From a virus, in UHGV virus genome UHGV-0188240: a DNA stretch of 18,499 nt. The stretch is one strand, 5' to 3'. This document shows, in pieces, positions 2,719 to 17,175 of this stretch. The position numbers and the translations under genes were made by a program. The notes under the pieces were generated by a model. It was not told where the DNA came from and made no database searches. It saw nothing but the letters and a program-made list of their open reading frames with translations. The first letter of the stretch is position 1, and the number at the start of each line of letters is the position of its first letter.

Positions 2719-3005
2719 GGCTTAATCTTCCCCTCCTTCAGCAGTATCGCCTGCGTCCTGATCACGCCTTCGAGGTGGTAAAGTCTGGCGTCTTTGTTGT
2801 CGAGAATCATTGTGCGTCGGTCGATCTCCGCGTGGCAGTCACTACAAGCCCATGCGCCGATCAGGTCGTCAGGCTTCATTCCCGTTCCGCAAATTCCAGC
2901 CATCCGGTAATGCGCCAGAACTGTAGTTTCAGGATTGCCATTGCATACGCCGTAAATACGTACCTGACATTCTCTGCCGCGTGCTTCTTTGCGTAGATTG
3001 GCCAT
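2715..3005 (-). CDS. ybcO: YbcO-like DUF1364 protein, Cys/His-rich putative nuclease
   Basis: 96 aa with CNG...H...C..C..CH pattern; same size and position (before rusA) as DLP12 ybcO as recalled. Confidence 0.55.
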   Translation of the reverse strand: MANLRKEARGRECQVRIYGVCNGNPETTVLAHYRMAGICGTGMKPDDLIGAWACSDCHAEIDRRTMILDNKDARLYHLEGVIRTQAILLKEGKIKP

Positions 3006-3727
3006 TAAGCAGCCTCCCCTGTTACTTTCAGCATTCCGTTATCGAGCAGCTTTCTGGTCAGCCACTGTTGACCACGCCCGGTGATTTTTGTGGTGAACGA
3101 TATCTGTATTCCGTGATTTGTATTGACCGCTGTTTCTTTCACTGTGAAATAGCCGCGATCCATATATTCCTGCATTGGCACATTGCGCCGGGAACCTGAA
3201 GCAATAAGGATTTTGTGATCGCGCATCCACGCAAACAGTTTGTTTGGACCAATACCGACAACCTTTGCAAAGTTTCCAATCAAAATTCCGCTGGCTTCGC
3301 CAACTCGATCGGCAAACTCAACTTTAGGTGCGGCAATTGCGAGCTGGTTTTCCAGTTGCATTTTCTGCTCAGCAAGGTCAGCAGCAAGGCGCAACGCTTC
3401 TGGTAGCGTTTTGGGGATATTAACCGCAGCGTCTTCAAGATCTCGCCAGCGGTCAACAAGGCGAGCGGTGAACTCTGGCGACAACTGGGCAACAACAACA
3501 ATACTATCTCGCTTACCTTGTTCGCCTTCGAAGACGTAATGCTCGTACTGAACATTGAACCCTAAGTTATTGATTCTTTCGGAAACCTCAATTTGAGGAA
3601 GCCGGATAACACCATTTTTAGCCAGTGTTTCGATGGTACGTTTCACATTGTCATGACGCTTACCCACCAACTCAGCGATTTCAATGCTTGTCATTTTGAT
3701 GGCATTGCCATTTATTAACTCATTCAT
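3005..3727 (-). CDS. phage antirepressor-like protein: N-terminal Rha domain plus C-terminal KilAC/ANT-like domain
   Basis: 240 aa; N-terminal MTSIEIAELVGKRHDNVKRTIETL resembles Rha regulatory domain; C-terminal half resembles KilAC antirepressor domain; inserted in the nin region. Confidence 0.7.
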   Translation of the reverse strand: MNELINGNAIKMTSIEIAELVGKRHDNVKRTIETLAKNGVIRLPQIEVSERINNLGFNVQYEHYVFEGEQGKRDSIVVVAQLSPEFTARLVDRWRDLEDAAVNIPKTLPEALRLAADLAEQKMQLENQLAIAAPKVEFADRVGEASGILIGNFAKVVGIGPNKLFAWMRDHKILIASGSRRNVPMQEYMDRGYFTVKETAVNTNHGIQISFTTKITGRGQQWLTRKLLDNGMLKVTGEAA

Positions 3728-6452: not shown

Positions 6453-7295
6453 TCACTCCTGCGCCCATGAAGGCATTTCAGTTTGCCCGTAATCTTTGGC
6501 GGCAAAGTTTTCCTGCATAGCTCGCTGCTGCGGCCTCGGTTGAGATTTCCCCTTTGGAGTCTTGGGTTCAAAAATCCCCTGCCAACCACTGGCGATGCTC
6601 TGGTTTATAATTTCTTCAGGTGTATATCCCTTCTCCAGACTTCTGCTTAGAACGTTGATAGCCTGAGTGACACTTTGCTTAGACTTGATCGACTTACCTA
6701 TCTCCTTGCGATAGGTAACCCACGACAACCATGTTTCTGCTGATAACCAATCAGGCAACTCTGTTTCTAGCGGGTCGAACTTCTGAGAAACTTTTTTGGG
6801 GGATATAGGGGGTTTATTAATATTTTCTTTTGTCTTTAAAGAATGTCTTTTGTGTGTCTCTAACTTCGAGACATTGAGTGTCTCTAATTTGGAGACATTT
6901 TTTGTCTCTAACTTCGAGACAAAGTTGCTAACTTGGAGACACTTGCTGAATTGCCACGCAGATACCTCACTGTTTACACCGATTTGATTTCCATCCATAA
7001 ACAGGCAATTCATTGAAATCAGTTCTTTTTTAGCCTTGTTAACATTCTGCCTTGACAGTCCTGTTAACTGAGCAATTTGCTCATCGGCTATTCGATCTGT
7101 TTTCTTATTGAATCCATATGTTTTCCGGACGTAGGCCAGCATAACTTTCAACTGGCGAGCGGTTAAATCAGCACTTGCGATAGCTTCCAGCAGCTCGTTA
7201 GCGAATCTGGTGTAACCATCATCGATATCAGCCACTCTTCGCTCCTGTTCAACAGGTTCACTCTTCGACAGGTAAAATACTTCAGCCAGGCTCAT
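6453..7295 (-). CDS. replication initiator O-like protein
   Basis: N-terminal ADIDDGYTRF...ADLT.RQLKV...RKTYG parallels recalled lambda O; start re-placed to ATG 7295 (SD GGAGG 6 nt upstream); internal tandem peptide repeat VSKLET encoded by the ori iterons. Confidence 0.8.
   Translation of the reverse strand: MSLAEVFYLSKSEPVEQERRVADIDDGYTRFANELLEAIASADLTARQLKVMLAYVRKTYGFNKKTDRIADEQIAQLTGLSRQNVNKAKKELISMNCLFMDGNQIGVNSEVSAWQFSKCLQVSNFVSKLETKNVSKLETLNVSKLETHKRHSLKTKENINKPPISPKKVSQKFDPLETELPDWLSAETWLSWVTYRKEIGKSIKSKQSVTQAINVLSRSLEKGYTPEEIINQSIASGWQGIFEPKTPKGKSQPRPQQRAMQENFAAKDYGQTEMPSWAQE
6855..6941. repeat. replication origin iterons inside the O-like gene, with adjacent AT-rich region at about 6800-6850
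   Basis: Three near-identical 19-bp dyad-symmetric repeats TGTCTCTAA(C/T)TT(C/G)GAGACA at 6855-6873, 6879-6897, 6903-6921 and a degenerate fourth at about 6925-6941, period 24 bp; arrangement mirrors lambda ori within O. Confidence 0.7.
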
Positions 7296-7926
7296 TTCCA
7301 ACCTCCGCATCAAAGCATTGGGCTTCAAGAGACTTAACCATCACCACACTGCCATCTGTATTAATAACTATCGATGAGTTATATTTGCTTATCAGTTGCT
7401 TCGCGTAATCAATTCCGGCGCGAATAAGGAAATTTTTCACCGCAGGAAGATGACCAACTACACTACCCAGACCTTGCTCTATAAGCTCCTCATTAAGATC
7501 AAGCTCATTTTCATGGCGAAAAGAAATGAATGAGTCGTAAATTGCGTATTCTGCCGTCTCGCCATTTCTTTCAGGGCCAACCAGCGCCCTTATTTCATTT
7601 AGAGATTCAGAAAGCTCATTATCTTCAAGCTTGAAAAACTCTCGATTATCACTAAGCCTCTCTTTTGCAAAGGCTTTATGCATGAGTTTTTCATCTGATG
7701 CGGGATTATTTGAATGAAAGGCTGCTATCACCTTAAATGGCTTAGGAACGCCAGTAGAGGCTGAAATTTCTTTAGCCCTAACTTCTGGTGAATGCTTAGT
7801 CATCCCAATCTTATAAATTCCTGGCATGCACTCATTAGAAAGCACATAAACAAAGCCATTTGATTTAAAATCATCTGGCACCTTCATGCTCTTCAGAACC
7901 TGGAATTTGTCATTTTCGTATGTCAT
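7282..7926 (-). CDS. GIY-YIG-like (T5orf172-type) domain protein inserted between cII and O
   Basis: 214 aa; GFVYVLSN...GIYKIGMT followed by conserved R and E positions resembles GIY-YIG / T5orf172 fold; strong SD AGGAG 5 nt upstream; 3' end overlaps the O start by 14 nt. Confidence 0.55.
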   Translation of the reverse strand: MTYENDKFQVLKSMKVPDDFKSNGFVYVLSNECMPGIYKIGMTKHSPEVRAKEISASTGVPKPFKVIAAFHSNNPASDEKLMHKAFAKERLSDNREFFKLEDNELSESLNEIRALVGPERNGETAEYAIYDSFISFRHENELDLNEELIEQGLGSVVGHLPAVKNFLIRAGIDYAKQLISKYNSSIVINTDGSVVMVKSLEAQCFDAEVGNEPG

Positions 7927-8358: not shown

Positions 8359-9711
<1,353 letters not shown>

Positions 9712-9730
9712 TCCCCACCTCAATCTCGAT

Positions 9731-9779
9731 AACCAAAAAACAAACTATTTTCCGTTTAAAAACAACGGAGTTTGTTTTT
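9731..9779 (+). terminator. intrinsic terminator ending the cI operon
   Basis: Inverted repeat CAAACT...AGTTTG with inner CCGTT/AACGG pairing, followed by TTTTT. Confidence 0.5.
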
Positions 9780-9782
9780 CAC

Positions 9783-9824
9783 GCCTCTTTTTACAATATT
9801 TCTTGTTTACAGTATACAATCTTT
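9783..9824 (+). promoter_or_regulatory. OL operators (434 type) and candidate PL promoter
   Basis: ACAATATTTCTTGT (9783-9796) and ACAATCTTTCTTGT (9806-9819) fit ACAA-N6-TTGT; candidate -35 TTTACA (9796-9801) and -10 TAATTT (9819-9824) with 17-nt spacing. Confidence 0.6.
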
Positions 9825-9873
9825 CTTGTAATTTTAAGCCATCAGCAGGACGCGCTAACCACCATGAAGGTGA

Positions 9874-9904
9874 TGCTCTTAAAAATTAAGCCCTGAAGAA
9901 GGGC
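9874..9904 (+). promoter_or_regulatory. nutL (boxA GCTCTTAA region and boxB GCCCTGAAGAAGGGC)
   Basis: GATGCTCTTAAAAATTAAGCCCTGAAGAAGGGCAGCA matches recalled lambda nutL; boxB hairpin at 9890-9904. Confidence 0.75.
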
Positions 9905-10172
9905 AGCATTCAAAGCAGAAGGCTTTGGGGTGTGGTGAAGCCAGCTAGTCACTGGCAAGTGCTTACCTACTGTTGAGCGGTGAAGCGCTCCCAACGCTAG
10001 CAATAGCGTGGACGAGATGGGGAGCCGCGGGCGATAAGGCCGCCATAACGCGCACGTTGTCGCATGGAAAAATCGCTGGGGTGCCGGTTATACCCCTCCG
10101 AATGAGACTCAACAAGCTGGAGCTAGACTACCAGCCACCACACCACCAAAGCTAACTGACAGGAGAATCCAG

Positions 10173-10505
10173 ATGGATGCACAAACACGCCGCCGCGAAC
10201 GTCGCGCAGAGAAACAGGCTCAATGGAAAGCAGCAAATCCCCTGTTGGTTGGGGTAAGCGCAAAACCAGTTAACCGCCCTATTCTCTCGCTGAATCGCAA
10301 ACCGAAATCACGAGTAGAAAGCGCACTGAATCCTATAGACCTTACGGTGCTAGCTGAATACCACGAACAGATTGAAAGCAACCTGCAACGTATTGAGCGC
10401 AAGAATCAGCGCACATGGTACAGCAAGCCACGCAGTGAAATGGGTGTGACTTGCTCAGGCCGCCAGAAGCAACGCGGAAAATCAATTCCAGCTTATTACG
10501 ATTGA
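10173..10505 (+). CDS. N: antiterminator N, lambda type
   Basis: MDAQTRRRERRAEKQAQWKAANPLLVGVSAKPVNRPILSLNRKPKSRVESALNPIDLTVLAEY matches recalled lambda N including the Arg-rich boxB-binding motif; C-terminus diverges. Confidence 0.9.
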   Translation: MDAQTRRRERRAEKQAQWKAANPLLVGVSAKPVNRPILSLNRKPKSRVESALNPIDLTVLAEYHEQIESNLQRIERKNQRTWYSKPRSEMGVTCSGRQKQRGKSIPAYYD

Positions 10506-10513
10506 GGTGAGCC

Positions 10514-10678
10514 ATGCTCAAGAAAGTCAAACGCCGACTTTACAAAGAAGGTGGATATTCATGCCAGTTGCCAAAATGCGACACAACAAAATGGAATGTC
10601 GATGATTGGTGTAACTGGATAGATAGATACGGAACTTGGTGGGAACGTATTTATTTTCGCAGCAAACCACTTATTTGA
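10514..10678 (+). CDS. hypothetical 54-aa Trp/Cys-rich protein (not in ORF track)
   Basis: MLKKVKRRLYKEGGYSCQLPKCDTTKWNVDDWCNWIDRYGTWWERIYFRSKPLI; SD GAGGTGAG 4 nt upstream of ATG; stop lies 8 nt before the next start. Confidence 0.4.
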   Translation: MLKKVKRRLYKEGGYSCQLPKCDTTKWNVDDWCNWIDRYGTWWERIYFRSKPLI

Positions 10679-10686
10679 GGTTAGAT

Positions 10687-11136
10687 ATGGAAGAACAAGC
10701 AAACAAGATTCTCGTAGAACTACTGCAAAAAGCCAGTAATGGAATAGACGCGGCTGTTTCATTCAGCCAGGCACAGATTCCTGATGTTGTTCATCAGTTG
10801 CTGCTATGGAATATGGTTGACAGTCTGATTAAAACATTAATGGCCATTTTAACAATCCCACTGGTTTTCTGGTTTATGAAGAAGCAGTGCCAAAGAGTTG
10901 AGACAGGTAAAATCGGTGATGAAGGATATTCATGGGAGAAAGGAAATCCCAAATACAGGCCGACAATGGTTTGGGATAGCAAAGGTGATATTAATCTTCT
11001 TATCATGCCATTGGTTGTAGTTTTGACTCTGTGGGGGATTTTTATTATTGGTGTAGTAACCAATATGACTTGGTTAAAAATTTGGCTGGCCCCAAAGCTT
11101 TACCTTATCGAATATGCAGCATCATTGGTTAAGTAA
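10687..11136 (+). CDS. hypothetical membrane protein with two predicted TM segments (possible SieB-like exclusion protein, unverified)
   Basis: 149 aa from ATG 10687 (SD GAGG 6 nt upstream); hydrophobic stretches LIKTLMAILTIPLVFWFM and LLIMPLVVVLTLWGIFIIGVV; AT-rich by eye; position just after N. Confidence 0.5.
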   Translation: MEEQANKILVELLQKASNGIDAAVSFSQAQIPDVVHQLLLWNMVDSLIKTLMAILTIPLVFWFMKKQCQRVETGKIGDEGYSWEKGNPKYRPTMVWDSKGDINLLIMPLVVVLTLWGIFIIGVVTNMTWLKIWLAPKLYLIEYAASLVK

Positions 11137-11140
11137 TTTC

Positions 11141-11168
11141 AGGCCGCATAGTCGGCCTTTATTTTTGG
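11141..11168 (+). terminator. intrinsic terminator, copy 1 of a repeated intergenic element
   Basis: Hairpin AGGCCG-catagt-CGGCCT followed by TTATTTTTGG; same element recurs at 11915. Confidence 0.5.
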
Positions 11169-11190
11169 CATAAATACACAGAGGTGAATA

Positions 11191-11442
11191 ATGACAGTAG
11201 GAAGAATGAAAAGGCCATGGAATGTTGTTGGCGCTGGATTTAACGATGATGGGGTTTATTTCACGTTTGACGATACAACCATCCATCGAGGTGATGTGAG
11301 ATTGATGGAGGCAGCTCCTGATTTGCTCGAAGCCCTGCAAGCGATGCTAAACAAGGCATACAAGCAAAACTGGAATGACCATTATCCTGATGAAGTATCG
11401 AAAGCACAGTCAGCAATCAGCAAAGCCCTTGGAGATGAGTAA
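11191..11442 (+). CDS. hypothetical protein, paralog A (C-terminal AAPDLLEAL...AISKALG motif)
   Basis: 83 aa; SD GAGGTG upstream; C-terminal 45 residues are paralogous to the ORF at 11957. Confidence 0.5.
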   Translation: MTVGRMKRPWNVVGAGFNDDGVYFTFDDTTIHRGDVRLMEAAPDLLEALQAMLNKAYKQNWNDHYPDEVSKAQSAISKALGDE

Positions 11443-11445
11443 TAT

Positions 11446-11916
11446 ATGACAAAATCATGGAGCGTACCTTTTCCTGAATCAGAAACTGAACATGATGGAA
11501 TGCCTGTTTTCTGGAGATTCCAAGCGACAGTTGAAGAAGATGGAATCAAAATATTCGCACTTCAATATATAGCTTTTCATCAGACAGAGCATTATGCATG
11601 GTTGGTTCCTGCGCATTGGATTGTTAATTTTAAACCAGCACCAAATCAGTGGTTACAGGAATGGAAACAAAGGAGAAATAGATATGCAATTAAGAAAGTA
11701 GCAAAAAATGCAGAAAGATCTTTTGCGTTCCCGACGAAGAAACTTGCCATTGAAAGTTTATTGCGCCGGAAGAAATACCATTTGATGAGAATCAAACAAG
11801 ATTTGGCTGTTGTATCAACTCTTGTTGATGGGATGAAGAATATTGATACATCAACACCAGATATTGAATATAACTTTGGACACAACCAAGAAACAGAAAA
11901 TTGGGTATTCTACTAG
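11446..11916 (+). CDS. hypothetical protein
   Basis: 156 aa; AT-rich by eye; starts 4 nt after the upstream stop; no recognised family. Confidence 0.5.
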   Translation: MTKSWSVPFPESETEHDGMPVFWRFQATVEEDGIKIFALQYIAFHQTEHYAWLVPAHWIVNFKPAPNQWLQEWKQRRNRYAIKKVAKNAERSFAFPTKKLAIESLLRRKKYHLMRIKQDLAVVSTLVDGMKNIDTSTPDIEYNFGHNQETENWVFY

Positions 11917-11942
11917 GCCGCATAGTCGGCCTTTATTTTTGG
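11915..11942 (+). terminator. intrinsic terminator, copy 2 of the repeated intergenic element
   Basis: Identical hairpin AGGCCG-catagt-CGGCCT plus TTATTTTT; followed, like copy 1, by GGCATAAA...CAGAGGTG and an ATG. Confidence 0.5.
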
Positions 11943-11956
11943 CATAAACAACAGAG

Positions 11957-12241
11957 GTGGATATGAAAGAGTTTAAGGGTACGCCTGGTAAATGGAAGTA
12001 CACGGTTAGAAACGTCAACGAGATGATGACTACGTTCCATGGTGTGACGATTGGTGACACATACATTGAAGCAGCAACAAGAAATGAAAGGGAGGATGCG
12101 CTACTGATAGCAGCAGCTCCTGATTTGCTTGAAGCACTGCAAGAGCTTGTCTTCCTTTACGAGCATGACGAAGGGTGCAGAGAGTTAACCGAATACAAAC
12201 GAGCCAAGGCAGCCATCAGCAAGGCCCTGGGGGAAGAATGA
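11957..12241 (+). CDS. hypothetical protein, paralog B (C-terminal AAPDLLEAL...AISKALG motif)
   Basis: 94 aa; SD GAGGTGG upstream; C-terminal domain shared with the ORF at 11191. Confidence 0.5.
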   Translation: MDMKEFKGTPGKWKYTVRNVNEMMTTFHGVTIGDTYIEAATRNEREDALLIAAAPDLLEALQELVFLYEHDEGCRELTEYKRAKAAISKALGEE

Positions 12242-12399
12242 TGAATAAGAAATACATTGTTGAAGTTATAGAGCGAGAAACGAAAGAAGTAATTAAACAT
12301 TTCGAATTTGATAATTATAGAAAAGCTGACCGCGTAGAAGAGGGATTGTTGCGACAAAGTAATCTCGAAAAATTTGATGTTGTCATGCGATGCGAATAA
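12238..12399 (+). CDS. hypothetical small protein
   Basis: 53 aa from ATG 12238 (ATGA overlap with upstream stop, G-rich SD); the track ORF from 12175 is a longer in-frame version. Confidence 0.4.
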   Translation: MMNKKYIVEVIERETKEVIKHFEFDNYRKADRVEEGLLRQSNLEKFDVVMRCE

Positions 12400-12492
12400 G
12401 CACCTATAGCAGATTTGCGAGTCTGCTATGTGAGCAATGTCGCTCGTAACTAAACAGGAGCCGACTTGTTCTGATTATTGGAAATCTTCTTT

Positions 12493-12519
12493 GCCCTCCA
12501 GTGTGAGGGCAATTTTTTT
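12493..12519 (+). terminator. intrinsic terminator
   Basis: GCCCTC-cagtgt-GAGGGC hairpin followed by AATTTTTTT. Confidence 0.5.
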
Positions 12520-12531
12520 GACGGAGGATAT

Positions 12532-13500
12532 ATGAGTGAAGTAACAGATTTAGTTGTTATTGAAAAAGCAAATGCAATGACTGTATTTCAGTCTGCCGAC
12601 CAGATTGAAGAAATCCTTCAAAAGGTTGAACGTGAAGTTATGTCCTTTGTGCCTGATATCACAACGGCAAAGGGCAGAAAGGAGATCGCTTCTCTGGCGT
12701 ATAAAGTTGCGCAGACGAAAACATATCTCGATGGTCTTGGCAAAGACCTTGTTGCTGAACTGAAGGAAATTCCAAAGCTAATTGATGCCAACCGCAAGAC
12801 AGTGCGTGATCGCCTTGATGAGCTGAAAGCCAAGGCGCGCCAGCCTCTTACTGATTATGAGGAAGAACAGGCGCGGATTAAAGCCGAAGAAGAAGCTAAG
12901 GCAGCAGCTGAAGCTCTCGCAAAGCAAATTGAGTCTGACCATGAAATAGCTATTTTGATGGATCGCGAATTTGACCGCCAAAGAGAAGAGGCAAGACTCA
13001 AAGCGGAGCAGGAAAAGCGAGAGCATGAAGAACGCTTAAAAAGAGAAGCTGAAGAGAAAGCCAGAGCAGAAGCCGAAGCAAAGGCAAAAGCCGAAATTGA
13101 AGCAGCAGCAAGGCGAGAAGCAGAAGCTAAGGCCGCAGCGGAACGTGCAGAGCGTGAACGCATTGAAGCCGAGCAACGAGCACAGCGCGAAGCAAAAGAG
13201 GCAGCAGAACGAGCTGAAAGAGAAAAGCAGGCGGCAATTGAAGCAGAACGCCGAAAAGCACAGGAGGAGGCTGAACGAATCCGGCGCGAGGCTGAAGCAA
13301 AAGAGCAAGCCAGAATAGCAGAAGAAAAAAGAATCAAGGACGAAGAAGAGCGTAGAGCAAAGGATAAAGCTCACCGGAAAGAAGTAAATAACAAAATACT
13401 TGCTGACCTTATCAAGGTTGGTGCATCAGAAGATGTTGCTAAAAATATCATAACAGCCATCGTAAAAGGCGAAGTATTCGCAACAAAAATAACCTACTAA
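12532..13500 (+). CDS. hypothetical coiled-coil protein with a long low-complexity Glu/Ala/Arg/Lys-rich central region
   Basis: 322 aa from ATG 12532 (SD GGAGG); central region made of degenerate EAEAKAKAE / ERAEREK-type repeats between structured N- and C-terminal segments. Confidence 0.6.
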   Translation: MSEVTDLVVIEKANAMTVFQSADQIEEILQKVEREVMSFVPDITTAKGRKEIASLAYKVAQTKTYLDGLGKDLVAELKEIPKLIDANRKTVRDRLDELKAKARQPLTDYEEEQARIKAEEEAKAAAEALAKQIESDHEIAILMDREFDRQREEARLKAEQEKREHEERLKREAEEKARAEAEAKAKAEIEAAARREAEAKAAAERAERERIEAEQRAQREAKEAAERAEREKQAAIEAERRKAQEEAERIRREAEAKEQARIAEEKRIKDEEERRAKDKAHRKEVNNKILADLIKVGASEDVAKNIITAIVKGEVFATKITY

Positions 13501-14049: not shown

Positions 14050-14655
14050 ATGAGCAAAGAATTTTACGCAAGACTGGCAGCTATTCAGGAGAATCTGAAC
14101 GCGCCAAAGAATCAGTACAACTCATTCGGAAAATATAAATACAGAAGCTGCGAAGACATTCTTGAAGGCGTTAAGCCGTTACTGAATGGCCTGTTTTTAT
14201 CAATCAGCGATGAAGTTGTGTTGATTGGTGATCGGTATTACGTGAAAGCCACGGCAACTATTACCGATGGCGAAAACAGTCATACGGCAACCGCTCTTGC
14301 ACGAGAGGAAGAAAGCAAGAAAGGGATGGATTCTGCACAAGTTACGGGAGCTACAAGCTCTTATGCACGCAAGTATTGCCTCAATGGTTTGTTCGGCATT
14401 GATGATGCGAAAGATGCAGATACAGACGAGCATAAACATCAGCAGAACGCAGTAGCAAAGCAATCAAAACCATCACCTACACCTGAACAGGTTCTAAAAG
14501 CATTCACTGACGCAGCAATGCAGAAAAACACCGTGGAAGAGCTTAAACAGGCGTTCGCCAAAGCGTGGAAGATGCTCGAAGGAACACCGGAGCAGCACAA
14601 AGCGCAGGACGTTTACAACATCAGACGAGACGAATTAGAAGGAGCGGCTGCTTAA
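14050..14655 (+). CDS. erf: Erf-family single-strand annealing recombinase
   Basis: MSKEFYARLA...NQYNSFGKYKYRSCEDILEGVKPLL...GDRYYVKATATITDGENSH...YARKYCLNGLFGIDD closely matches recalled P22 Erf; start at ATG 14050, not track start 14020. Confidence 0.85.
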   Translation: MSKEFYARLAAIQENLNAPKNQYNSFGKYKYRSCEDILEGVKPLLNGLFLSISDEVVLIGDRYYVKATATITDGENSHTATALAREEESKKGMDSAQVTGATSSYARKYCLNGLFGIDDAKDADTDEHKHQQNAVAKQSKPSPTPEQVLKAFTDAAMQKNTVEELKQAFAKAWKMLEGTPEQHKAQDVYNIRRDELEGAAA

Positions 14656-15061: not shown

Positions 15062-15358
15062 ATGCCAGCGCCTATGTATGGTGCGGATGACCCGCGCCGC
15101 TGTTCCGGTAGCTCCAAGGCGGAGGTGCTGGAAAATATCAAAAACAATTTCGACACGTTTATCGATCTGCCACCAGAAACAAAAGCAGAACGGATGTACC
15201 GACGCGATATACAACTCGCGTTAAAAGATGAGAAGGACCGAACAAACGAAACAGCAATGAGACCGTTGCGAAAAGCGACAATAGACAAATTCCCTGAATA
15301 TATCGACCCGCGCCTGCGTAATTACCGCTCACGCTATGGCGCTATCAGTAATGACTGA
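15062..15358 (+). CDS. hypothetical protein (possibly Abc2-like anti-RecBCD; positional inference only)
   Basis: 98 aa; SD AGGA 7 nt upstream; size and position after erf match P22 abc2 as recalled, sequence not verified. Confidence 0.45.
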
Positions 15359-15368
15359 GGAATTTACC

Positions 15369-15533
15369 ATGAGAGGACTTGCATACAATCCCGGCATTCT
15401 TCCGGCAGAAATGATTATTCGCCAACGCGTAAAGCCAATGCCATCGAGAGAGGAATTGCTTAAGAGAAATTCTTTTCCATCAGTGAATCAAAACAAATAT
15501 CTGAATGCTATGTGGCGGAGTGGGAAGAAATGA
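15369..15533 (+). CDS. hypothetical small protein
   Basis: 54 aa from ATG 15369 (SD AGGAA 6 nt upstream); alternative in-frame starts at 15351 and 15336. Confidence 0.3.
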
Positions 15534-16111
15534 AACAAATGTCACTAATTGAGATGGATGGTTTTCTGAAAGGTAAATGCATCCCCCGAGATTTAAAGGT
15601 TAACGAAACAAACGCTGAATATCTTGTCCGTAAGTTCGGTGAACTTGAATCAAAACTAGAAACGGCGTTGCGGGAGTGTCGTTCTGCTGGAATCACGATT
15701 GATAACCTTGAGGCCAAGTGCGCGGCGCTGGCTGTGGAGAATGCGTGGCTGAATAAATTTATCGTACAGAGTTGCTACGTGTTTGACGGCGAGCAGGGTG
15801 AACTATCTGATGCGTATATCTGCGCAATAGACGGAAGGATGCCGCAAACCCAAGTCACCGACGCTTTTTGGGATGAAGTGAAGACTGAAGCACGCAAGGA
15901 AGGCGCTTACTTTGTGGCGAACAGAATGCTGGCTGCCTGGGATGCTGGTTTTATTGATGATACTGCGAAGAACGCAGCGGATATTGCCCGGATGATTCTT
16001 ACCTCAACTGAGTTTATGGCTAATGCGCCGGAAGGCGATTTTGACCGCTCATTCTCTGATGGCGTTCTCGAAGATATCGCCGACCAGCTTCGCAAAGGAG
16101 GCAACCAGTGA
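15530..16111 (+). CDS. hypothetical protein, Ead/Ea22-like region
   Basis: 193 aa from ATG 15530 (ATGA overlap with upstream stop); track start 15512 is a GTG; acidic, predicted helical. Confidence 0.5.
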
Positions 16112-17175
16112 GCAAGATTGACTATCAGGTACTGCGTGAGGCAGCAGTAGCAATTGAAACAGTAGCAACACCTCAAAAATTGCTGGCATTTCGTATGAAA
16201 GTAACACCTCAGGTTGTGCTGGCTCTACTGGATGAACGAGATGCATTAAATGAACGCCTAGCCGAACTGGAGGCTGATTTAGCAGGGCTGGCCGAAGACC
16301 ACCAGAAAGCGACTGAGTCAATTAAGCAGGCTGATGCAGCTGTTAAGTTGGCACACGAGAAGTTTTCGGCGCTGGCGGCGGAGAATGCGATGTTGAAGCA
16401 ACGGACACAGCAACTTATCAACATCATTAGTAATACTGACAATGACTACTGCATGTGTGGTTCTGCTATGAAAGACCACGTGCACGGCGGATGTGGTTAT
16501 CCTACTGGCATGTTCGATTATTACTACAACCAGTGGCTGGAGTCAGATAACAAAACCCCAGCCACCGATGCTTTCCTGGCTGAAGTTAGGCGTGAGGCAT
16601 CTGAACCACTCCAGAAGGAAATTGAAATCCTTAATAAGAATCTGCTCATGTCTGTTGGCGATATCAGAGACCTTATTGACTACAACCCTGAAACTGGAGT
16701 TCTTACCGCGAAAGTCAACTTTGCAGGTCGTCAGGAAGGAGCAATTATTGGCTCTCAAACTTGGCAGGGCTATTACGCCTTTTCGCTGTTTGGCAAGAAG
16801 TGCTTTGCTCACCGTCTAGCATGGCTTCTACATTACGGAGAATGGCCTTCCCAGCCTATCGACCATATCAATGGCATCAAGAAAGACAACAGCATAAGAA
16901 ACCTGCGCCTTTGCTCTCTATCGCAGAATCAATTCAACAAACCAACCCAGAAAAATAACACCACTGGTGTCAAGGGGGTCTATTGGAATAAGCGCGATAA
17001 GCGATATGTAGCAAGCGTTCAATTTAACGGGAAGAAGTACAGCGCAGGGCACCATAAGGATATCGAAAGCGCAAAGGAAGCCGTTATGAAGCTAAGAGAA
17101 AAACTTGCAGGCGAATTTACTAACCATGGTGAATTCGAACTCGCCGACCAGTTACGACAGGGAGCCGCGCTATGA
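16108..17175 (+). CDS. fusion protein: Ead/Ea22-like N-terminal coiled-coil region plus HNH endonuclease plus AP2-type DNA-binding domain
   Basis: GTG start with SD GGAGG 6 nt upstream; HNH core HRLAWLLHYGEWPSQPIDHINGIKKDNSIRNLRLCSLSQNQ; AP2-like GVKGVYWNKRDKRYVASVQFNGKKYSAGHHKDIESAKEA; Cys/His cluster CMCGSAMKDHVHGGCG; N-terminus paralogous to the ORF at 17441. Confidence 0.7.
   Translation: MSKIDYQVLREAAVAIETVATPQKLLAFRMKVTPQVVLALLDERDALNERLAELEADLAGLAEDHQKATESIKQADAAVKLAHEKFSALAAENAMLKQRTQQLINIISNTDNDYCMCGSAMKDHVHGGCGYPTGMFDYYYNQWLESDNKTPATDAFLAEVRREASEPLQKEIEILNKNLLMSVGDIRDLIDYNPETGVLTAKVNFAGRQEGAIIGSQTWQGYYAFSLFGKKCFAHRLAWLLHYGEWPSQPIDHINGIKKDNSIRNLRLCSLSQNQFNKPTQKNNTTGVKGVYWNKRDKRYVASVQFNGKKYSAGHHKDIESAKEAVMKLREKLAGEFTNHGEFELADQLRQGAAL

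Follow-up and report, generated by a model that had tools for sequence, protein, structure and literature searches.

Conserved linkers at the junctions of lambdoid modules are reportedly part of the modular theory of Susskind and Botstein, and the 2001 work of Clark and colleagues on HK620 is said to be among the papers on boundary sequences. The formation of mosaics is a matter of debate, with conserved linkers and homologous recombination set against random illegitimate joints that are sorted by selection. Exchange at short conserved boundary sequences is accepted as one route, though a minority one, by which mosaic joints form (PMC3029335, PMC2327257), and PMC3029335 points, through two of the works that it cites (its references 21 and 22), to lambdoid boundary sequences at module junctions. 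Here we describe a 34-nt element, designated E, that occurs twice in a viral genome of 18,499 nucleotides (UHGV-0188240; the window). As with lambdoid boundary sequences, E is a near-invariant intergenic sequence carried by a subset of related phages and is a proposed substrate for exchange; unlike them, it is also a predicted terminator hairpin and may form tandem arrays around single genes. Being short, located at gene boundaries and flanked by unrelated sequence on either side, E would belong with the conserved boundaries or linkers of lambdoid mosaics, and we regard it as a clear example of known phage mosaicism, a specific instance with no new mechanism.

Three other described systems bear comparison with E. 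In T4-type phages, conserved promoter and stem-loop motifs termed PeSLs (promoter-early stem-loop) flank ORFans (Arbiol et al., 2010; PMC2839356), and recombination between PeSLs deletes, inserts or circularises genes (PMC2839356). E shares with the PeSL a terminator stem-loop and Shine–Dalgarno sequence between small ORFans of a hyperplastic region, direct copies on either side of single genes, and polymorphisms (insertions, deletions and replacements) that map to the motif. In contrast to the PeSL, E has no conserved sigma-70 promoter, so that its cassettes would depend on read-through from pL under N antitermination; it is present at one to three copies per genome rather than around 50, and its phage is temperate, lambdoid and equipped with Erf, whereas PeSL phages use the T4 recombination machinery. 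Morons, as far as they are discussed in PMC2839356 (after Juhala et al., 2000), are small AT-rich genes inserted between conserved genes and associated with terminators. The cassettes next to E are likewise small, AT-rich, accessory and terminator-associated, but they have the terminator and no individual promoter, and they are bounded by a conserved sequence held in common instead of by unique illegitimate joints. Arrays of E also recall integrons, in that promoterless single-gene cassettes are parted by a hairpin-forming repeat; however, the gene maps of related loci have no integrase beside the array, and E has neither attC architecture nor R and L core sites.

The repeated element and its operon

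From ~8.7 kb onwards the + strand of the window is the N-antiterminated pL (early-left) operon of a lambdoid prophage. It opens with a profile match to an S24/HTH repressor (cI, 8678-9310, + strand), a terminator-like hairpin found by hairpin scan (9750-9770, + strand) and a nutL boxB, GCCCTGAAGAAGGGC (9890..9904, + strand), which was found as a hairpin, was read in the sequence, matches the boxB of lambda nutL and marks the operon as N-antiterminated; comparable boxA and boxB sequences are annotated in phage CL707. A lambda-type antiterminator N (10173..10505, + strand; Pfam N36, E-value 1.6e-26; phrog_271) and a 54-aa DUF5484 gene, s54 (10514..10678, + strand; Pfam E-value 1e-10), precede the region of interest, in which TM149, E, pA83, o156, E, pB92, s52 and a structured spacer follow one another on the + strand. 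Beyond a terminator hairpin at 12491-12512 lie a 322-aa gene (phrog_1376) and then cIII, Kil, the single-strand annealing recombinase Erf (14050..14655, + strand; Pfam ERF, E-value 5.6e-44) and the anti-RecBCD protein Abc2 (15062-15358; Anti-RecBCD_p2, E-value 7e-37), while cII and an O-type replication gene are on the - strand.

E (AGGCCGCATAGTCGGCCTTTATTTTTGGCATAAA) is an exact direct repeat on the + strand at 11141-11174 and 11915-11948, its two copies being identical at 34/34 positions with starts 774 bp apart. They are the sole matches in the whole window when up to three mismatches are allowed. Alignment of the two intergenic copies extends the likeness rightward to ~41 nt (11141-11182 against 11915-11955) with a single 1-nt indel (TACACAGAGGTG versus CAACAGAGGTG), and 3' of this both copies continue with the Shine–Dalgarno sequence AGAGGTG and an ATG (at 11191 and 11963). 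Comparison of the two copies to the left of the first base of E found no likeness. The first copy (11141..11182) consists of a hairpin at 11141-11158, a T-run at 11159-11167 and a conserved tail to 11182, followed by the AGAGGTG; in the second (11915..11955) the hairpin is at 11915-11932, the T-run at 11933-11941 and the conserved tail, CAACAGA, runs to 11955. That the repeat is a chance short match, or an artefact of assembly, is negligibly probable: 200 dinucleotide-preserving shuffles gave no match to E with three mismatches permitted, which refutes a chance origin, and the identical arrangement is present in independent ENA and JGI assemblies.

Both copies were scored as terminator-like, with the stem AGGCCG/CGGCCT (6 bp, five of them GC pairs), a 6-nt loop and the tail TTATTTTT. 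As in intrinsic terminators, a GC-rich stem-loop directly precedes a U-rich tract and the placement is intergenic, 3' of a gene. E is probably a Rho-independent terminator hairpin joined to the short 5' leader of the next gene, termination being predicted from the sequence. It is a simple 18-nt hairpin (-9.1 kcal/mol) with a short stem of 6 bp, the hairpin at 12491-12512 being stronger (-12.5), and many close variants of E break one stem pair without compensation. Its reverse strand has no T-run, and the terminator call is on the + strand only. Among IMG/VR homologs of the PF27050 genes described below, a terminator-like hairpin lies within 130 nt upstream in 18/71, compared with 50/710 random windows on the same strand, a 3.6-fold enrichment. 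Several of these upstream hairpins are related to E, with stems that differ and yet pair (AGGTCGCTAAGTCGGCCT, GGGTCGCTAACGCGGCCT, GGGAGCTTAAGGCTCCC and AAGGCCTCTTAAAGAGGCTTT) and a common tail, TTTTTATTGC. A scan of positions 9300-13000 against Rfam found no known RNA family. A promoter within E was considered and rejected, as the sole match (TTGGCA-16-AATAAT) is confined to the first copy, where its -10 coincides in part with the start codon, outside the conserved stretch, and is missing at the second copy and at the commonest right flanks.

E lies on the same strand as all of the pL genes, downstream of a lambda-type nutL and N. Lambda N modifies RNA polymerase to terminator resistance, and polymerase within this nutL/N operon is thus expected to be terminator-resistant. 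In this E resembles terminators of the lambda tL1 type, which are also intrinsic, lie shortly downstream of N in the nutL operon and are expected to be overridden by N. It differs from tL1 in that three terminator-like sites are arranged in series here (the two copies of E and 12491-12512), in being a mosaic junction across a phage population, and in that its terminator activity is predicted. We propose that E, as a tL1-like terminator plus leader, would gate downstream expression on N: polymerase modified by N would read through it, and unmodified polymerase would stop there.

The first copy begins 4 nt past the stop codon of TM149 (10687..11136, + strand), which encodes a 149-aa predicted membrane protein (phrog_3054, E-value 1e-64), and is followed by pA83 (11191..11442, + strand; 83 aa). 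The second copy overlaps the stop codon of o156 (11446..11916, + strand; 156 aa, 471 bp), the TAG of which uses bases 1-2 of E, and is followed by pB92 (11963..12241, + strand; 92 aa), for which the ATG at 11963 is preferred over a GTG at 11957. Both pA83 and pB92 have precomputed Pfam matches, as do their homologs, to PF27050 (the Phage_P22_Y8K6 / XkdD family), of which they are here called alleles A and B; the RefSeq name of at least one member is 'XkdD/Y8K6 family phage-associated protein'. They also match phrog_1273 (E-values of 4.6e-18 and 7.9e-24 respectively). BLASTP aligns their C-terminal halves with 24/51 identities (47%; E-value 2e-11) and the motifs AAPDLLEALQ and AISKALG(D/E)E are common to both, whereas the N-terminal halves do not align. 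An AF2 model of pB92 is confident solely in a C-terminal helical hairpin. The 52-aa gene s52 (12241..12399, + strand; phrog_6949) often accompanies PF27050 alleles. The o156 product belongs to phrog_1636, and its matches in phage 933W fall under the annotation L0079; its AF2 model (pLDDT 77.5) matched no fold in the PDB at an E-value of 0.001 or below. The GC contents of o156, TM149 and s52 are 36.7%, 39.3% and 32.7%, against 46.1% for the window. Pfam (in a set without the PF27050 model), NCBIfam and PADLOC returned nothing for TM149, pA83, o156, pB92, s52 or a gp33-like protein, and a literature search on Y8K6, XkdD and L0079 gave nothing relevant. The preliminary description of this DNA had recorded an identical hairpin and T-run at 11141 and 11915, a paralogous gene after each, and an unrelated AT-rich frame of 156 aa in between, and all of these observations are borne out by the exact repeat, the shared family assignments of pA83 and pB92, and the separate family and low GC content of o156.

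E as a junction between reassorted flanks

E was found in 88 phage records, at one place per record; most of these are Stx-converting phages, and CUS-3, mEp235, mEpX1 and Bas106 also carry it. It is present in more than 120 IMG/VR contigs among the matches listed and in 410/5,426 complete E. coli genomes (about 8%), at one to four places per genome and usually as a single copy per element. A scan of species-representative genomes found one exact copy, in Shimwellia pseudoproteus, nearly all of the others being from E. coli or its phages. These searches used the exact pattern, which favours perfect copies, and variants were sought by Hamming and blastn-short scans. E is an annotated feature in none of the records examined, being left unmarked even in the richly annotated immunity region of CL707, and a literature search found no paper describing it.

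When the 40 nt before E and the 40 nt beyond E+7 were each sorted into classes, 75 distinct neighbourhoods fell into eight unrelated left classes and 12 right classes, with 27 combinations observed. The left classes are the ends of TM149, of a 207-aa Nmad5-family gene, of o156 and of five others; the right classes include several PF27050 alleles, o156, a 44-aa gene, a 108-aa gene and, directly, the tL spacer described below. An identical pA83 protein is present in 36 blocks of the collection. In the ten places that were listed, E-pA83 lies behind five different upstream genes (encoding 147 aa, TM149, 169 aa, the Nmad5 protein of 207 aa and 104 aa) and pA83 is followed by three different neighbours (a 62-aa gene, o156 and the gp33-like gene). 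In a sample chosen independently of E, namely 80 loci fetched by way of the TM149 protein, a hairpin resembling E lies 4 nt past the stop codon in 77; 38 of these are exact and the others are mostly one or two bases off. E is exact even in loci that share only 87-89% identity with the window over the final 150 nt of TM149. A sharp step in identity at E was looked for between divergent TM149 alleles by sliding comparison and rejected, as the divergence sets in 100-250 nt upstream: a conserved block that extends from ~100 nt upstream to ~150 nt downstream spans E, and no sharp step is therefore to be seen at E itself.

We consider it likely, from these comparisons of sequence, that E is a terminator and leader which serves as a common linker through which cassettes are exchanged by homologous recombination. 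Some 41 nt that hardly vary across a large set of lambdoid phages from E. coli suggest such a linker, offering perfect homology at a position where exchange spares genes, and homologous recombination in or beside E would reassort its left and right flanks. The presence of two copies in this operon may be due to the role of E as a near-invariant junction where small accessory genes are exchanged between E. coli phages. Short homologies of this kind could be used by Rad52-like annealing proteins, probably such as the Erf encoded 2 kb downstream, aided by anti-RecBCD functions. The recombinases Redβ, RecT and Erf have been shown to generate mosaics from short or diverged homology (PMC3945230, PMC2327257). 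That recombination occurs at E is inferred from the comparisons; a crossover inside E would leave no trace, so that its site cannot be placed in E as opposed to the adjoining conserved sequence.

Another explanation is that E is kept solely as a needed terminator and leader, and that the joints arose by random illegitimate recombination and selection, as in moron accretion, with E itself no substrate. The cassettes are moron-like in their low GC content and in having no assigned function; IS elements are inserted a short way downstream of E in CL707 and SH2026Stx1, hinting at a zone that tolerates insertions, and the first joint of each gene X to E (X|E) was necessarily illegitimate. We nevertheless consider this explanation unlikely, since the 27 flank combinations share one identical joint of 34-41 nt, and pA83 with 100% amino acid identity follows E after five different upstream genes; separate illegitimate events would not arrive repeatedly at the same boundaries. 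Moreover, the cassettes are without promoters, arrays of the junction exist, and homologies of this length are used by phage recombinases (PMC3945230).

The exact left edge of E is left unaccounted for by linker exchange: exchange inside E keeps exact X|E joints and does not create them. The element starts at or overlaps stop codons and ends at the Shine–Dalgarno sequence and ATG. All eight unrelated upstream contexts join E at exactly its first base, several upstream frames have a stop codon (TAA, TGA or TAG) completed by E bases 1-2, and the Nmad5-family frame runs into E and stops at a TAG in the loop (E bases 9-11). Its right edge is less sharply defined. The exact joints could stem from illegitimate joining directed by the base of the hairpin, from selection for compactness, or from a cassette mechanism of greater specificity. 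A rival proposal is that some site- or structure-specific process, either integron-attC-like or an insertion directed by the hairpin, acts on E to move ORF-precise cassettes. Such a process would fit the base-exact left edge, the stop codons completed by E, the hairpin and the existence of cassette arrays. It is, however, quite improbable: the gene maps examined show no dedicated recombinase beside E, some junctions are occupied by variants whose left arm is broken or truncated, there is usually one copy per phage, and besides the fuzziness of the right edge, a hairpin-less 19-mer containing a ribosome-binding site (see below) behaves alike.

E as a shared linker thus remains our preferred reading, and the locus would illustrate from nature, with unusual clarity, the linker route to mosaicism, given that E is carried by some 8% of complete E. 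coli genomes, Stx-converting phages among them, and given the reassorted flanks, the arrays and the nearby Erf. It is also a tractable experimental system, and E can serve as a practical annotation marker for a hypervariable accessory slot just downstream of N, in which genes with no assigned function (PF27050 alleles, o156/L0079, TM149 and Nmad5-like genes) turn over.

Origin of the two copies in the window

The compound arrangement of the window, E-pA83-o156-E-pB92, was found in no phage record and in no complete E. coli genome. It is present, with both copies exact, in two independent metagenome contigs (L125, an ENA scaffold, and L133, a JGI contig), and is thus real but uncommon. Each of its halves is common by itself. 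In what we term the A-type arrangement, E-pA83-o156 is followed directly by the tL spacer (loci L126-L130 and L065), and in the B-type arrangement o156 precedes E-pB92 (L001, L066, L101 and others). The body of o156 in the window is identical to members of both groups, its 5' flank is A-type and its last ~15 nt are B-type. The two copies of E would most simply derive from one homologous crossover within the 471-bp o156 of an A-type and a B-type phage: a phage with E-pA83-o156-tL spacer and one with o156-E-pB92-s52 would have recombined in their common o156, so that a copy of E stands on either side of pA83-o156 in direct orientation and two divergent PF27050 alleles follow one another. For such a crossover nothing need have happened at E itself.

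A local tandem duplication of a unit comprising E and a PF27050 gene, followed by divergence of the genes and insertion of o156, would also put two genes of one family, each with the same element before it, 774 bp apart. We regard this as very unlikely, because the copies of E are identical at 34/34 positions while the proteins are 47% identical over their C-terminal halves only, and because each allele occurs alone and nearly identical in the same slot of many other phages; both single-copy parental arrangements exist as well. TM149-E-pB92, the architecture expected from a deletion between the two copies of E, is also found (L051 and L097), in loci that are not direct derivatives of the window, and this too argues against duplication. 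On the sequence comparisons, pA83 and pB92 appear to be divergent alleles of one family that were brought together by the crossover in o156, with no local duplication.

The preliminary description had proposed cassette exchange by recombination at a conserved junction, and had suggested a search of related phages for the element. The search upheld E as a conserved junction that marks variable cassette boundaries, with eight left and 12 right classes in 27 combinations, five upstream genes before the same pA83, and tandem arrays in which E junctions surround single genes. Exchange at the junction is favoured by the reassortment of the flanks, and the proposal is essentially upheld, with the refinement that E-pA83-o156-E was not seen to move as one piece.

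Further linkers and cassette arrays

E is one of three conserved non-coding sequences that delimit two slots in this part of the operon. The left edge of slot 1 is an RBS linker, TTATTTGAGGTTAGATATG, comprising a ribosome-binding site and start codon (10671..10689, + strand). The corresponding 19-mer, TTATTTGAGGTNAGATATG (window positions 10671-10689), stands before seven or more different genes in related loci, and HSPs covering 10659-10689 persist despite differing flanks. The right edge of slot 2 is the tL spacer, a conserved non-coding sequence (12432..12520, + strand) that ends in the strong terminator hairpin at 12491-12512. The region around it (12400-12535) has a z of -4.2, the spacer has no match in Rfam, and in related loci it is followed by at least three different continuations. 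The slots are thus RBS linker-X-E, occupied in the window by the TM149 cassette, and E-Y-tL spacer.

Two E-like copies, with small indels allowed, were found in 12/215 E-bearing loci, which amount to ~8 distinct contigs or arrangements. In L066, L101 and L139 the order is E-o156-E. In L214 a composite junction of ~80 nt, made up of an E variant, CAACAGAATAAACACTGCACTGAA and the RBS linker, stands before TM149 and again before o156, and in L214 and L215 TM149 is bracketed by E-containing junctions. On these gene orders, junction repeats around single genes look like the behaviour of a cassette array. Perhaps E and the ~80-nt composite junction, as in L214, form the repeating element of cassette arrays in lambdoid pL operons that have no promoters and are gated by N, a temperate counterpart of the T4 PeSLs, in which direct copies would excise and capture single genes as mini-circles and the base of the hairpin would direct ORF-precise joints. 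Joints directed in this way would account for eight unrelated genes abutting E at the same nucleotide; we consider this reading unlikely. A further rearrangement is seen in L058, which carries a scrambled duplication of the tail of TM149, E and part of o156.

Joints and insertions at the conserved element

The left edge of the element E (a terminator-like hairpin plus T-run of 34-41 nt) was compared in the window (11137-11141 and 11912-11916) and at loci L008, L124, L126 and L130. Either the first bases of E complete the stop codon of an unrelated upstream gene or, as with an Nmad5-family gene, the ORF runs into E and ends at the TAG of the loop. The same base of E formed the joint in all eight left contexts. 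E is also the right edge of a variable slot bounded on its left by a 19-nt RBS/start linker, TTATTTGAGGTTAGATATG (10671-10689 in the window), and in related phages this linker preceded at least seven different genes.

In phage CL707 (L294; E at 3001-3034) and in SH2026Stx1 (L295; E at 2001-2034), transposase genes, of IS10 in the former and three in number in the latter, start approximately 120-135 nt downstream of E, which suggests a site where any sort of insertion is tolerated. The CL707 record, otherwise rich in annotation, leaves E unmarked.

Local duplication and mosaic alleles

In phage mEp213 (L002) two antiterminator N genes, each of its own type, occur together with a pair of E-like copies and a tandem pair of the conserved non-coding tL spacer. 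This points to a larger event in which the N-proximal module as a whole was duplicated or fused. L058 and L239, which are one contig, bear a scrambled local duplication: the gene for the predicted membrane protein TM149 and E are followed by the first 135 bp of o156 (the 156-aa ORF), the last ~45 bp of TM149 with a second E, a complete o156 and one more copy of the 3' end of o156. The scramble looks like the footprint of repeated unequal exchange within the interval.

Judged from alignment A1, the PF27050 proteins (pA83 and pB92 in the window, 11191-11442 and 11963-12241) are themselves mosaic. A hypervariable middle separates the conserved AAPDLLEALQ helix from the conserved AISKALGEE C-terminus, and alleles differ in which N-terminal half is paired with which C-terminal half; one allele, for instance, combines the C-terminus of pA83 with the N-terminus of a second allele. 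Such reassortment implies intragenic recombination at the conserved motifs.

Structured and repeated sequences elsewhere

Upstream of the 322-aa gene lies a structured, highly conserved non-coding block (12400-12531; conserved part 12432-12520) that folds far below shuffled controls (z = -4.2) and ends in a strong terminator. Its first hairpin exists in two alternative forms across phages, CACCTATAGCAGATTTGCGAGTCTGCTATGTG in the window and TGTGTATTCATTCCAACGAGTGAATACACGG elsewhere. Nothing in Rfam matched the block, which, besides being a mosaic linker, may act as a regulatory RNA or a site of processing.

Diverged direct repeats (72-79% identity; 15716-15753/16360-16397 and 16077-16115/17141-17179) sit inside two neighbouring + strand ORFs, 15512-16111 and 16108-17175, and at their ends; the two ORFs are therefore probably paralogs. 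Within the O-type replication gene (6453-7328, - strand), three tandem 24-nt repeats, TTGTGTGTCTCTAACTTCGAGACA, span 6850-6921; each contains an inverted repeat, and they are presumably origin iterons.
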